NCBI GenBank assembly: GCA_965203485.1
Contig: OZ241892.1
Location: forward strand, 1,376,001-1,440,000
Reading direction: 5' to 3'
DNA: 64,000 nt
DNA from: Longimicrobiales bacterium
GTDB lineage: Bacteria; Gemmatimonadota; Gemmatimonadetes; Longimicrobiales; Gaopeijiaceae
This document shows positions 10,776 through 49,550 of the stretch, piece by piece. The notes under the pieces are model-generated. The model was not told the DNA's origin and did no database searches. It was given only the letters and a program-made list of their open reading frames with translations. A program made the translations under genes and the position numbers. Every line of letters starts with the position of its first letter. The stretch's first letter is position 1.

Positions 10776-11573
10776 GTGAACGAGGCCCTGGCCTTCCTCG
10801 ACGGCCTTCCGCCTTGGCTCGTCTACGCGGCGCTGGCCGGGGGAGCGGCAGTCGAGAACGTGTTGCCCATGGTGCCGGCCGACACCTTCATCGCCGCGGG
10901 GGGCTTCTTGGCGGGACGCGGAGCGATCGGCGTCGCGGGCGCGTTCCTGGTGGTCTGGGGATTCAACGCCGGGGGTGCGCTGGCCGTCTACGGCCTGGGG
11001 CGCAGGCACGGTCCCGGGTTCTTCCGCACGAAACTGGGCCGCCGGGTCGCCACGGAGGACCAGATGGAGGCGCTGGGTCGCTTTTACGGACGCTGGGGAG
11101 TGGCGGCGATCTTCGCCTCGCGGTTCCTGCCCGGGTTCAGGGCGCTGGCGCCGGTGTTCGCGGGCGCGACCGGCCAGGCCGTGTTGCGAGTGGCGCCGCC
11201 GGTGCTGGTCGCTTCCGCTCTTTGGTACGGCGCACTGTTGCGGTTGGGCTACCTGGCGGGCGAGAACATGGGAGAAGTCGCGGCCGTCCTGGGCCGGACG
11301 AATCGAGGCCTGCTGGCGGCGTCGGCGGTCTTGGCCGTCTGCTTGGCCGCTTGGTGGTGGCGCGCGCGCCGGGCGGCAAGGCGAGGGACGGCCGGTCGCG
11401 GGCCGGCGCGGCCGGAGGAGACGAACGGCGGGCCCAGGGACGGCGCGCGGGGAGAGCCGGGTTCCGTCGCCTGCGCCGCGGAACTCGGCGCTGGGGCGGA
11501 CGCCGGGCGGGGGAAGGGGGCCGCGGAAGCGCCGGACGAGGCCGAGCGGGAGCGCGCAGGGAGCCCTGCGTGA
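10776..11573 (+). CDS. DedA family membrane protein
   Basis: ENVLPMVPAD, YGLGRR.G, FASRFLPGFR motifs. Long Ala/Gly/Arg-rich C-terminal tail. Confidence 0.9.
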   Translation: MNEALAFLDGLPPWLVYAALAGGAAVENVLPMVPADTFIAAGGFLAGRGAIGVAGAFLVVWGFNAGGALAVYGLGRRHGPGFFRTKLGRRVATEDQMEALGRFYGRWGVAAIFASRFLPGFRALAPVFAGATGQAVLRVAPPVLVASALWYGALLRLGYLAGENMGEVAAVLGRTNRGLLAASAVLAVCLAAWWWRARRAARRGTAGRGPARPEETNGGPRDGARGEPGSVACAAELGAGADAGRGKGAAEAPDEAERERAGSPA

Positions 11574-45261: not shown

Positions 45262-47169
45262 CTACTGCGAGATCGTCCGTTGCGCCTCGACCAGCTTCAC
45301 GATCCAGAGGCCGGAGTTGAGGTCGGAGGTGAAGATGTTGCCCTTGTGGATCTGGGCGCCCCACGTCATGCCCCAGTTGGGGACGGTGGACTCGGAGTCG
45401 ATCGTCTTGAAGACGGCTAGTTCCCTGCCCTGCCGGTAGAGATCGCCGCGAAGTTCCCCGGAGATGTCCACGACCCGCAGGCCCGCTTGGTAGTAGCCGA
45501 CGTAGAGGCGGTCGCCCTCCACCCAGATGTTGTGGGCGCCGGCCTCGGGCACCTCGTAGCGGGCGACTTCGACGGGGTTCTCCGGGTCGGCCATGTCCAG
45601 CACGTGCACGTAGCCCCGGGCTTCGATCGGCGCGTCGGCGTTCCAGTCCCCGGGGAATATCTCGTCGCCGACGAAGAGGTAGCGGCCGGCCCGCCATGCC
45701 GTGTGAGTGTTGCCTGCCGCGTACTTGTAGCGCGACACGAACTGCGGCGCGGTGGGCGTCCCTCCGTGCGTCCCGGCGCCGACGTCCAGCATCACGACCC
45801 CGTCGTCCCAATAGGACAGATAGGCGTAGCCGTCCTGGACGATGACGTCGTGCAGCGACTTGGACGGCGACGCCGGTAGTCCCCATCGCCCGACCTCGTC
45901 CGGCTCGGCGGGGTTGGAGATGTCGATGATGTGGATGTCGCGCGTGCCGTTGTGCACCGCGTAGATCAAGTCCCCCTCTACCCAGACGTTGTGCACGCCG
46001 CCCGGGACCGTGCGCTTGTACTCCGACAGCACCGTGGGATGCGCCGGGTCGGACAGGTCCAGGACGACGATACCGTTTCGCCGGTCGGACGCACCCTCGC
46101 GGGTGAGCACGCCGATGCGGGCGCTCTCGTGAATCTTGACGTCGTTGATGCGGCGCGCGTCGAGCCGCACCGAGTCGGCAAGCACGGGCGCGGACGGATC
46201 CGTTACGTCCCAAGCCTTCATCCAGTCGTGCATGAAGGTGCCCACGTAGGCGTAGTCGCGTCCGTCGGCGCCCTCGAAGACCCAGGTGTCGCCCGAATGG
46301 TGGTCCGCCGCCGCGCCGCGGCCGACGTGCACGAGCTCGGCGGCCGCTTGGCGGGGAGCCGCATGGACGAGGGTCGTGAGAGCCTGCGCTTCGCCTACGA
46401 GCGCGGTCACCCGGTAGACGCCCGGCTCTTCGGCGACGAATACGCCCTCTGCGCCGTCGGGCTCGATCTGGGCGCCCGCGCCGTCCACGCTCCAAGCCGG
46501 ATGCAGGGCGCGCTCGCCGACCTCCGCGCGGAAGCGCACCACGTCGCCCGTGCGCGTGCGCGGACCGTCCGGCAGGAGGGCCGCCTGCGCCGTCGCGCCC
46601 TCTTCGACCACGACCATCACGGCCGCGCGCAGCTCGCCTGCCGTCACGACGACTTCGGCCTTGCCCGGCGAGCGGGCGAACACCCGGCCCGCGGCGTCCA
46701 CCGCCGCCACGCTCTCGTCGCTCGACGCGAAGGCGAGCGGTCCCGTTTCAGTGGGCTCGCCGTCCGCACCGGCCGCGGCCACGGAGACCGGCGCGCTCGT
46801 GCCCGAAAGCAGCGTGGGCTCGGGGAGCGCCGCCGAGACGACCTCGGCGGGGGCGGCCCGCACGACGACGACGGCGAAGCCCATGGTGTTCCCCGCCCTG
46901 GCGGCCACGCGCGCTTCGCCCGGCGAGACGGCCGTGACCCGTCCGTTCGCGTCCACGGTCGCGATCTCCGGTGCCAGCGCCCGCCAGGCGAAGGTCAGGC
47001 CTCTCACGAGGGCGCCGTCTTCGTCCAGGGCGCGGGCCTCGACCGCGGCGGACTCGCCGGGATCGAGCGCGAGACGCGCGGGGGCGAGTTCGATCCGTTC
47101 GGGGGCGGCCTGCATGGCCGCGAGCAGCATCGACGTCGTTGCGAGCACGGACTGGTCCTTTCTTGCCAA
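45262..47169 (-). CDS. Secreted Ig-like (Big_2) + LVIVD-repeat protein
   Basis: Two Big_2-like units (IATVDANGRVTAVSPG; VAAVDAAGRV) and repeated LVIVD units (WDVTDP, VLDLSDP, IIDISNP, VLDMADPENP, LRVVDIS). Start uncertain. Confidence 0.8.
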   Translation of the reverse strand: MARKDQSVLATTSMLLAAMQAAPERIELAPARLALDPGESAAVEARALDEDGALVRGLTFAWRALAPEIATVDANGRVTAVSPGEARVAARAGNTMGFAVVVVRAAPAEVVSAALPEPTLLSGTSAPVSVAAAGADGEPTETGPLAFASSDESVAAVDAAGRVFARSPGKAEVVVTAGELRAAVMVVVEEGATAQAALLPDGPRTRTGDVVRFRAEVGERALHPAWSVDGAGAQIEPDGAEGVFVAEEPGVYRVTALVGEAQALTTLVHAAPRQAAAELVHVGRGAAADHHSGDTWVFEGADGRDYAYVGTFMHDWMKAWDVTDPSAPVLADSVRLDARRINDVKIHESARIGVLTREGASDRRNGIVVLDLSDPAHPTVLSEYKRTVPGGVHNVWVEGDLIYAVHNGTRDIHIIDISNPAEPDEVGRWGLPASPSKSLHDVIVQDGYAYLSYWDDGVVMLDVGAGTHGGTPTAPQFVSRYKYAAGNTHTAWRAGRYLFVGDEIFPGDWNADAPIEARGYVHVLDMADPENPVEVARYEVPEAGAHNIWVEGDRLYVGYYQAGLRVVDISGELRGDLYRQGRELAVFKTIDSESTVPNWGMTWGAQIHKGNIFTSDLNSGLWIVKLVEAQRTISQ

Positions 47170-47277: not shown

Positions 47278-47351
<74 letters not shown>

Positions 47352-47419
47352 CTCGGCGGCTTCTTGGCCGTGGTCGCGCACGGGCATGCCGTGCGCAGGC
47401 CAAGTCCGTCCGCCCGGCG

Positions 47420-48664
47420 CTATCGGTCCGCGGTTCGCCTCCCCAGCCTTTCCAGCGCCGTCACGGCCGCGACGCCGGCCGCGAACATTGCGACGACCGA
47501 GAGCGTTGCCGGATCGCCGGCTACGGGCAGCGACGCCGTTTCATCTCCACTGGGCAGGTGGCGGTGGAACGGCCAGAGCTCGCGCAGCGAACCCAGCATG
47601 AGACCGGCCAAGACGGCCAGCACCGCGTCCGGCCACTTGGCGAGCAGGCGCCTTAGGATCCGGGCGAACGTCAACAGGCCGGCCGTCATGGCCACGATCA
47701 TGGTGGCGACCACGGCCAAGCTGCCCCCGTCGCCGTGGTAGAGCGCCGAGCGCAGGGCGCCGAGCACGTAGTCGTAGAGGCCGAGCGCCACCAGCACGAA
47801 GGAGCCGGACAATCCCGGCAAGCTCATGGCCGAGATCGCAAGCACGCCGGCGGCGAACACGAACGGAAGCCCGGGGTCCCGGCCGCCCGAAAGCGGCTGG
47901 TCCTGCCGCGCGGCCGCCACGGCGACCGGCGCGCGCACTTCGCGGATGGACCCGGCCGCCAGGTTGGCGTCGGCGCCCGCGACCCGCGCGACGATCTCGA
48001 TGCGCACTTCCTCGGCGCCGGCCGGAACCGTGGCCGGCCGGGCGGCTCCGTAGGCGATGCGAAGCCCGCCGCCGGGCCGTTGCGCCCAAAGCGTCGCGTT
48101 GGCCGGCGTAATCACGACGTCGGCCTCGGCCGGGCGCTCGAGTTCCAGCACGACAGCGCCGTGGGCGCGACCCTCGACCGTGGCCCGCAACCCAGTGAGC
48201 AGAAACGCACCGAGCGCCGCCGTCGTCCCCAGCGCCAAGGCCGTGGCCCCGCGTCGTTCCATGCGCCGGACCGGGATCGCCACCGACGCCAAGACCAACC
48301 CGAAGAACAGGCCCTTCATCTGCGCCGGGTAATCGTTCAGCAACGGCGGCAAGAAGCGCGATCCCGCGGCGATCGCAGGCCCGATCCCGATCGCAAGCGA
48401 CGCCAGGAAGAGCAACCGGCCGGCGTCTCGTCCGTCGTCGTCGCCGGCGAGCTTGGCCGGATCCCTCGCGCCGGCGGCCAATTGTCCGCGGAAGCGCGCG
48501 CGGGCCAGCCGCTTCGCCATCGCCGGGCCGATCCCGCTCACCGCGTCGATGGCTCGCGGGTAGATGCCCAGCACCAGCGCCACGGTGGCGCCGGACACCC
48601 CAGGCACGAGGTCGGCAAGCCCCATGCAGAGTCCGCGCGCCGCGTTGCCCAGCCAGCGGGTCAT
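47420..48664 (-). CDS. DUF368 membrane protein with an inserted soluble beta domain
   Basis: GLCMGLADLVPGVSGATVALVLGIY, FFGLVLAS, ISAMSLPGLSGSFVLV.LG.Y, GLMLGSLRELWPF. About 100-aa insert between the two halves. Confidence 0.9.
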   Translation of the reverse strand: MTRWLGNAARGLCMGLADLVPGVSGATVALVLGIYPRAIDAVSGIGPAMAKRLARARFRGQLAAGARDPAKLAGDDDGRDAGRLLFLASLAIGIGPAIAAGSRFLPPLLNDYPAQMKGLFFGLVLASVAIPVRRMERRGATALALGTTAALGAFLLTGLRATVEGRAHGAVVLELERPAEADVVITPANATLWAQRPGGGLRIAYGAARPATVPAGAEEVRIEIVARVAGADANLAAGSIREVRAPVAVAAARQDQPLSGGRDPGLPFVFAAGVLAISAMSLPGLSGSFVLVALGLYDYVLGALRSALYHGDGGSLAVVATMIVAMTAGLLTFARILRRLLAKWPDAVLAVLAGLMLGSLRELWPFHRHLPSGDETASLPVAGDPATLSVVAMFAAGVAAVTALERLGRRTADR

Positions 48665-48803
48665 CGCCGGCTCTCTCGGGTGGTCGGCCGGCGCGGCGCG
48701 CATGGGACGGCGGTTGCCGCCCTCGAGGTCCAGCGGCCGGAGGCCACGAGCACGGAACGCGCGGGCGGGCGCCGATCGACCTGCCGGCCCCGCTTCGAAG
48801 CGG

Positions 48804-49550
48804 CTATAGCTCCAGCTTCCATTCGCGGACGGCGCTCATTCGAGCCCGGTTCGTCAGGTCGAGATGAAGCGGGGTCACCGAGACGCATCCCTCGCTGACG
48901 GCTTGGAAGTCCGAGTCCGGGGCGTCGTCCCAGCGCTCCACGGTGCCGCCGATCCAGTAGTACTCCCTGCCCGACGGGTCGGGCGCCCGCGTGACCGCGT
49001 CCGTGTAGTGACGGCGGCCGAGCTCGGTGACGCGGACCCCCCGTGCTTCGTCCGGCCGGACCGGGGGCAGGTTGACGTTCAGAACTTCGCCGGCCGCGAT
49101 GCCGCGCGCCGTAATTTGCGTCAGCAAGCCGACGAGCGCGGTCTGCCAGCCCTCGACTTCCTCGACTCGCCGGCCCGCGAAGGAAACCGCCACGGCCGGG
49201 ATCCTCATGATGGCGGCTTCCATCGCCGCGGCCACGGTGCCCGAGTAGAAGACGTCCTCGCCCATGTTGGGGCCTGCGTTGACGCCGGAAAGGCACAGTC
49301 CAGGTCGTTCGCCGAGCAACTCGTTGACCGCGAGCATGACGCAGTCGGTGGGCGTGCCGTCGATGATCGTGGTGCCGTCGGGGGCGCGCCGCTTGCGCAG
49401 GGGATGATGAAGAGTCAGCGCGTGGCTGGACGCGCTTCGCTCCCGGTCGGGCGCCACGACGTCGACCGCGCCGATCTCGTGGGCGGCCTCGGCCAGCACG
49501 CGAAGTCCCGGAGACAGGTAGCCGTCGTCGTTGGTGCAGAGAATGCGCAC
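48804..49550 (-). CDS. surE: 5'/3'-nucleotidase SurE
   Basis: RILCTNDDG, VVAPDRERS, GTPTDCV, SGVNAGPNMG, YSGTVAAA, VSVTPL. Confidence 0.96.
   Translation of the reverse strand: MRILCTNDDGYLSPGLRVLAEAAHEIGAVDVVAPDRERSASSHALTLHHPLRKRRAPDGTTIIDGTPTDCVMLAVNELLGERPGLCLSGVNAGPNMGEDVFYSGTVAAAMEAAIMRIPAVAVSFAGRRVEEVEGWQTALVGLLTQITARGIAAGEVLNVNLPPVRPDEARGVRVTELGRRHYTDAVTRAPDPSGREYYWIGGTVERWDDAPDSDFQAVSEGCVSVTPLHLDLTNRARMSAVREWKLEL

Follow-up and report, generated by a model that had tools for sequence, protein, structure and literature searches.

Flipping of undecaprenyl phosphate by the DUF368/PopT family, which includes VCA0040 of V. cholerae and SAOUHSC_00846 of S. aureus, is reported in PMC9876793, and PopT is described, in bioRxiv 10.1101/2022.02.03.479048, as two inverted repeats with re-entrant loops. 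The architectures that Sit et al. list in PMC9876793 are DUF368 only, PAP2-DUF368, DUF368-PAP2, DUF368-DUF368, and DUF368-BacA, and the DUF368-DUF368 column of its supplementary file 12 contains Gemmatimonadetes and Myxococcales proteins of 412 to 439 aa; the word "baseplate" occurs nowhere in that file. DUF368-PAP2, DUF368-BacA, and DedA-PAP2 fusions also carry accessory domains on carrier-recycling flippases, there as catalytic membrane domains at the termini, whereas the domain described here is soluble, nonenzymatic, and placed internally. The second system that bears on this locus is the baseplate wedge, whose "wing" domain in phage 812 makes contact with the hub, the spike, or the sheath initiator (PMC13433997) and in diffocin touches the hub hydrolases (PMC10996793).

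The DNA analysed here, referred to as the window, is a stretch of 64,000 nucleotides, on whose minus strand the open reading frame (ORF) 47420-48703 encodes a DUF368 protein that matched PF04018 (E = 3e-54; 184.5 bits against a curated cut-off of 26) in two stretches flanking an insert. The probable start is the ATG at 48664, which gives a product of 414 aa, has GAGAG 6 nt upstream, and lies at the same place as the start in relatives; an alternative upstream ATG at 48703 would give a product of 427 aa. A promoter scan of the locus found none. The features are as follows.

47420..48664, minus strand: predicted DUF368/PopT polyprenyl-phosphate flippase gene with barrel insert, 414 aa (PF04018, model)
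48188..48664, minus strand: N-terminal DUF368 half, residues 1-159 (PF04018 positions 1-133, model helices, charge counts)
48590..48604, minus strand: first PGxSG motif, PGVSG, residues 21-25 (invariant in the family alignment)
47876..48187, minus strand: baseplate-J wing beta-barrel insert, residues 160-263, predicted to be periplasmic (profiles, model, charge)
47423..47875, minus strand: C-terminal DUF368 half, residues 264-414 (PF04018 positions 136-235, model)
47804..47818, minus strand: second PGxSG motif, PGLSG, residues 283-287 (re-entrant hairpin directly after the barrel)
48804..49550 (start approximate), minus strand: surE, conserved upstream neighbour (PF01975, E = 2e-56)
47278..47352, plus strand: tRNA-Arg(CCT), convergent downstream neighbour closing the slot

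Two inverted membrane repeats with one PGxSG re-entrant element each were recognised from the motifs at residues 21-25 and 283-287, the modelled helices, and an alternating charge bias, in line with the architecture described for PopT, and both motifs are shared with VCA0040 and SAOUHSC_00846. Within the N-terminal half are the first re-entrant motif and, at approximately residues 36-84, an amphipathic segment that is basic and cytoplasmic. The product is very probably a PopT-type undecaprenyl-phosphate flippase, its activity being predicted from family membership. Scores against NCBIfam NF052563 and NF052564 (98 and 152 bits, respectively) were below the equivalog cut-off of 400. The insert breaks up the match to both of these narrow models; the shortfall lowers the status of the protein as PopT sensu NCBIfam and leaves untouched the view that it works like PopT. 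In the source genome, which is 95% complete, a profile search found a single PF04018 gene, the one at 47420-48664, and the genome also encodes BacA and three DedA-like genes. One of its three DedA/VTT-domain matches lies at 10872-11252 on the plus strand.

The protein departs from plain DUF368/PopT in having a 104-aa barrel, predicted to be periplasmic, where those have a loop of about 8 residues. A sequence-only reading of this DNA had placed a 104-residue insert between the DUF368 halves, and 47876-48187 (minus strand) translates exactly so, in frame within the DUF368 ORF. The spacing between the two PGxSG motifs was 146 to 154 in insert-less relatives versus 257 to 291 in barrel-bearing forms. 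A frameshift or chance fusion was ruled out by the single open frame found in 22 of 22 loci.

Searched alone against Pfam, the insert matched only PF04865 (E = 3e-4), at 20.6 bits against a cut-off of 21.1 (0.5 bit short), and the inserts of relatives passed this cut-off at 22.7 to 34.2 bits (L075, L083, L084, L086, and L060); PF04865 matches ended at position 111 of 255, and the flanks are DUF368 helices. The baseplate wedge family phrog_6 matched the insert alone (E = 7e-5) as well as 20 of 21 family members (best E, 3e-8). In the PDB, a profile built from 21 inserts found two wedge proteins, that of phi812 (9euf_C; E = 6e-5, over profile positions 3-100) and gp65 of phiCD508 (9g8s_C; E = 1e-4); profiles were required for this, as phmmer with the single insert gave no baseplate match in the PDB. 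The stand-alone model of the insert was all-beta (pLDDT 91), all seven Foldseek PDB matches at E ≤ 0.001 were baseplate wedge chains (TMq 0.71 to 0.77), and the best viral structure model reached a TMq of 0.84. When the insert was compared with 48,161 chains by VIA-align, the first 13 rows were baseplate chains (Z 12.0 to 8.1), headed by 9euf_C 74-171 (Z 12.0; rmsd 2.3 Å; 97 residues), and the next row, the best non-baseplate match, was domain 2 of Streptomyces GlxA (4unm_A 144-257; rmsd 3.4 Å; 95 residues) at a Z of 8.0, a level that VIA-align flags as possibly a common arrangement; all remaining folds scored 4.6 or lower. Against 1.84 billion representatives, the insert profile matched 251 proteins at E ≤ 0.001, and 76 of the best 150 matches were scanned with Pfam, giving 16 with DUF368, 58 with Baseplate_J and without DUF368, and 2 with neither.

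The insert is almost certainly homologous to the baseplate J/gp47 barrel, with a similarity beyond chance, and it corresponds to the entire wing, a beta-barrel domain, of these wedge proteins, the matched range being equated with the published wing by its place after the N-terminal helices. A baseplate-J barrel was what the sequence-only reading had seen here, with the forecast that profile and fold searches on the insert alone would return baseplate proteins; this held, in that the profile, Foldseek, and VIA-align matches all led to wedge proteins. In common with the baseplate J/gp47/gp6 wedges (phi812 gp116, phiCD508 gp65, Mu gp47, A-1(L) gp31, and diffocin Tri2), the insert has the wing fold across its whole length and the sequence signature, of which A167, G169, V171, G216, A226, G230, N234, G260, G261, and D263 are kept. 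Unlike whole wedge proteins, it consists of the wing only; the core bundle, trifurcation, and dimerisation domains are absent, and a search of the source genome for tail genes (baseplate J and sheath) found none besides it. It also differs from J proteins in that the closing-strand N is replaced by Q and the IPxGT turn is degenerate; the residues specific to the family are Q254 (91%; N in 95% of J rows) and R227 (78%). GlxA domain 2 (residues 143-260; PMC11022532), like the insert, is an extracytoplasmic inserted beta domain in an envelope-glycan enzyme, but the structural likeness is weak and possibly analogous, and its host is a copper radical oxidase.

In a model of the full-length protein (pLDDT 88; pTM 0.83), the barrel formed within the protein, all-beta as in the stand-alone model, and was joined directly to the helix that precedes the outer re-entrant hairpin. 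Among 67 aligned rows, K plus R per residue was 0.18 to 0.35 in segments 36-84, 131-139, and 334-346 and the C terminus and 0.01 to 0.08 in segments 104-114, the insert, 297-314, and 364-384. By the positive-inside rule, this alternation places the barrel in the periplasm, just ahead of the second re-entrant hairpin, and given the model and the charge rule a periplasmic location is very likely. The charge counts thus agree with the extracytoplasmic placement of the insert that had been read from the sequence, and the structure and topology prediction proposed along with it gave a barrel that folds inside the full model, on the periplasmic side by charge.

The barrel fusion was found to be a widespread subfamily, a point absent from the sequence-only reading, which had called for a search for the architecture in related genomes. 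A scan with a sequence pattern located 19 loci in genomes (16 from Longimicrobiales or Gemmatimonadota and 1 each from Myxococcales, Deltaproteobacteria, and a proteobacterium) and 3 in metagenomes, and each of the 22 proved to be a complete DUF368 gene carrying the insert. Among 401 genomes from the source phylum, 60 had a DUF368 match, full length with the barrel in 28 and without it in 32; all 28 barrel genomes fall in the source's own family, and 24 of 24 genomes of one genus are among them. In the Myxococcota-group phylum, a DUF368 match was present in 168 of 401 genomes, and 64 loci, which were picked by score or long gap and not randomly, were cut out, yielding 17 with the barrel, 26 with a second kind of insert (type B), 4 with a third (type C), 1 with a short coil, 10 plain, and 6 not parsed. 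In total, the fusion was represented by 57 distinct genome sequences, with at least 17 Myxococcota-group genomes in addition to the 28 of 401 in the source phylum, and both PGxSG motifs were intact in 72 of 72 barrel loci (57 distinct sequences).

Other domains occupy the same inter-repeat loop in relatives, at the following loci.

L089-L108, L110, L113, and L138-L141 (e.g., L104:669-926, minus strand for L104): type B, a LysM-like domain with a variable helical insertion, in Myxococcota-group DUF368
L115:623-922, L116:607-882, L117:648-947, and L120:674-958: type C, a domain of 92 to 100 aa, in a separate branch

PF01476 (LysM) was found in 0 of 25 type B sequences, a search of type B against the PDB gave no LysM match, and neither a usable Atlas match nor a consistent PHROG was obtained. 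With hhalign against 17 LysM domains, type B scored 43% untrimmed and 88 to 95% without the helical insertion, the trimming having been chosen after inspection, whereas controls (shuffles and the other two inserts) scored 2% or less. All 11 longer homologs of type B were DUF368 proteins. LysM binds peptidoglycan, and the type B domain, as its similarity to LysM suggests, is probably wall binding. Searches of type C against Pfam and the PDB gave nothing convincing, and the loop of L119 is a short charged coil. A common origin of the three inserts was ruled out, as hhalign among the barrel, type B, and type C gave 2% or less. On the best reading, the loop between the repeats is a slot for swappable periplasmic modules; this reading is absent from the sequence-only one, and the LysM-like occupant is newly described here.

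The history of the fusion was examined in an insert-free tree of the DUF368 core (86 rows, a quick method with SH-aLRT support only, including 18 Gemmatimonadota barrel rows, 14 of the 26 type B rows, and 4 rows not parsed). A single branch (SH-aLRT 99) contained all 48 barrel rows and also 4 Myxococcota-group rows that lack the insert; the Gemmatimonadota barrel rows were nested among Myxococcota-group rows. The four insert-less rows imply that the barrel may be dispensable, but since a tree without barrel losses was not rejected (p-AU 0.079), losses are suggested only. A grouping of the barrel rows from Gemmatimonadota with every plain row of that phylum was rejected (p-AU 6e-7), although the plain rows were themselves scattered, which weakens the test; joining the barrel rows to two plain genes from the same slot, a group named after the first tree, was rejected as well (p-AU 0.008). 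The set for these AU tests left out 13 rows without labels, 3 on long branches, and 1 duplicate. The type B branch came out as sister of the barrel branch (support 89). These trees point to a single origin of the fusion in Myxococcota, followed by transfer into Gemmatimonadota.

In 14 close pairs (core identity ≥ 0.80; 14 of 28, not all independent), dN/dS was 0.11 to 0.60 for the insert (median, 0.27) and 0.03 to 0.27 for the core (median, 0.19), and the insert exceeded the core in 13 of the 14; the other 14 pairs were excluded for a core identity below 0.80, where synonymous sites are likely saturated and insert ratios reached 1.07. The barrel is under purifying selection. GC3 was 0.88 for the insert and 0.89 for both DUF368 halves, and a recent insertion was ruled out by this agreement with the host gene and by the wide occurrence of the fusion. 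Taken together, the core tree, dN/dS, and GC3 indicate a fusion that is old, selected, and probably transferred.

In Gemmatimonadota, the barrel gene sits among housekeeping genes, in a der-plsY-gpsA-MerR-like-surE cluster, where the names except surE are our reading of the ORF sequences. A surE homolog was present in 45 of the 80 loci examined, all 45 of them from the Gemmatimonadota group. Depending on the relative, the position between surE (and pcm) and tRNA-Arg(CCT) (L165-L170; 47278-49550 in the window) is taken by the barrel DUF368 gene, by a plain DUF368 gene (G380 and G029), or by a DedA-like gene (G007 and G011, with PF09335 at E = 3e-7 and 2e-5, below the cut-off); in G005, the gene is probably DedA-like by a similar motif, with no Pfam match. 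At 47278-49550, pcm is absent, and surE ends 140 bases ahead of the DUF368 start. This pattern suggests that different flippases are interchangeable at one locus. In L003, L004, and P0008, the DUF368 frame continues antisense into tRNA-Arg before its stop, which gives a shared C-terminal tail. Beyond tRNA-Arg, 45262-47169 (minus strand) encodes a protein of 635 aa containing Big_2 and LVIVD repeats; G007, which is without DUF368, has a homolog in the corresponding position. A literature search found nothing on surE, pcm, yqaA, and nlpD together.

The barrel may have been donated by a phage, an injection system, or a cellular barrel family. Among the best 150 profile matches, 13 were proteins of 478 to 505 aa (approximately 495) with one transmembrane (TM) segment near 114-139, in which the barrel, at about 200-310, is the sole J domain.

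P0048, P0055, P0056, P0070, P0076, P0085, P0096, P0112, P0114, P0122, P0135, P0139, and P0155: single-TM barrel proteins

These proteins, which may resemble Chloroflexota proteins, look like a second cellular use of the barrel. That such a domesticated cellular family, and not a phage or injection system directly, supplied the barrel is compatible with any function of the insert, and we regard it as possible though doubtful. In its favour, besides the single-TM proteins with the barrel alone, P0048 matched phage records over only 24 to 27% of its length, the barrel only, and had no relatives among plasmids and viral contigs; the single-TM family was also 26% identical to DUF368 barrels on average versus 24% for J proteins (mean best identity, 33% versus 32%). 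On the other hand, the top non-DUF368 matches over the full barrel were canonical J proteins (P0021-P0023; E = 8e-10 to 2e-9), and a barrel tree of 105 columns resolved no donor placement. A search of viral contigs with one short pattern gave no insert relatives, and in phage records tblastn with the full-length protein matched the DUF368 parts only, in 5 records. Of the proposal in the sequence-only reading that a phage or injection-system domain had been domesticated, the part that stands is the fixation of the domain in a cellular housekeeping gene; a direct phage donor is weakened by the equal similarity of the single-TM cellular family. Nine large repeat proteins (P0006, P0018, P0019, P0024, P0025, P0029, P0033, P0059, and P0091) gave 6 to 27 partial matches to the barrel profile, which are probably beta-rich repeats or composition effects, and P0144 is a baseplate J protein broken by an intein-like Hint plus LAGLIDADG element ahead of the barrel.

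We propose that the loop between the inverted repeats of a PopT-type flippase took in a baseplate J/gp47 wing barrel once, long ago. The fused gene would have been born in the Myxococcota group and passed to Longimicrobiales-type Gemmatimonadota, into the position between surE and tRNA-Arg. The two membrane halves, with a PGxSG re-entrant hairpin in each, would return the lipid carrier to the cytoplasm, as expected from the family, and the barrel, by the model and the charge rule, would fold independently in the periplasm, immediately before the outer re-entrant hairpin. There it may serve as an accessory tether or docking surface, outside the flipping chemistry, that keeps the flippase close to the cell wall or to a partner in the periplasm, candidates being enzymes that release or dephosphorylate the carrier; its job would equal that of the LysM-like module in the loop of the sister subfamily. 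We favour this role tentatively, as plausible rather than probable, by analogy: in phages the wing makes protein contacts, and in the sister branch this slot is occupied by a LysM-like domain. Against it, neither a partner nor a ligand emerged from the analysis, the insert evolves faster than the core, losses are possible, and most DUF368 proteins function without an insert, and because the conserved insert positions are nearly all Gly/Asn of the fold core common to J proteins, a conserved binding face is not evident. That a LysM-like module occupies this loop in relatives lends indirect support to the scaffold role raised in the sequence-only reading, whereas nothing found spoke for its ligand sensor.

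The direct link of the barrel to the helix before the outer re-entrant hairpin in the model would also suit a lid or shield over the outer mouth of the cleft, gating the cleft or hiding undecaprenyl phosphate from lipopeptide antibiotics; R227 and Q254 fall within the conserved end motifs or next to them, and GlxA domain 2 is described as a shield of the copper site (PMC11611005). The presence of unrelated folds (barrel, LysM-like, and type C) in the same loop suits a tether better, however, and with the GlxA match at a level flagged as possibly commonplace, we consider a lid improbable. That the barrel is a tolerated passenger, an insertion-prone domain with adjacent ends that entered a permissive loop and is kept because its unfolding destabilises the flippase, would fit the conservation mainly of the fold core, the dN/dS above that of the core, the probable losses, and the fact that wedge proteins, too, carry the barrel as an insertion (PMC10996793). 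Yet the full-length barrel has persisted in two phyla and over large distances, including every sampled genome of one genus, though a clean deletion gives a normal DUF368, and related lineages have independently acquired at least three folded domains at this one loop; we think this explanation rather unlikely. A role with phages or injection systems, as a decoy for incoming tails or as an anchor of an injection system in the inner membrane, is suggested by the fold being a baseplate part and by a separate baseplate J gene in 3 of 3 Myxococcota-group genomes tested and in 13 of 101 genomes of the source family. Nevertheless, no other baseplate J (PF04865), insert-profile, or sheath (PF04984) match was found in the 95%-complete source genome, in agreement with the earlier remark that the window has no other phage genes. 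In five other barrel genomes, the PF04865 matches (in 3 of 5) were the insert itself only; the neighbourhood is housekeeping, selection is purifying and not diversifying, and the wing contacts in PMC13433997 lie within assembled baseplates and not with host receptors. Such a role therefore seems very improbable, and the phage decoy floated in the sequence-only reading is a poor fit for an old, vertically kept inner-membrane domain under purifying selection.

In its widest form, the proposal would be a Myxococcota-born PopT subfamily with a plug-in slot, filled by the wing barrel, a LysM-like domain, or a third fold, that anchors carrier recycling to peptidoglycan or the wall machinery, the wing barrel having been domesticated repeatedly, including in the single-TM family and perhaps in GlxA; we offer this as a speculation that may well be wrong. 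The barrel-bearing flippase is apparently an undescribed variant of a known flippase family. In literature whose coverage left out most subscription journals, nothing was found that links DUF368 with baseplates or VCA0040 with LysM. Automated Pfam labels do flag some members: PF04865 was already precomputed for P0005, P0157, and P0162 and for 21% of a 53-member Atlas cluster. The 412- to 439-aa "DUF368-DUF368" entries of PMC9876793 are probably inserted forms, and many entries so labelled would be single flippases split by an insert. Likewise, a "baseplate J" label in a cellular genome need not signal a prophage or injection system. The locus is a clear case of one contractile-tail structural domain that has long been kept in a housekeeping transporter and has moved between phyla. 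These natural module variants bear on the placement and regulation of DUF368/PopT and on its coupling to wall synthesis, and the loop, which tolerates about 100 residues, could be used as a fiducial in structure work.
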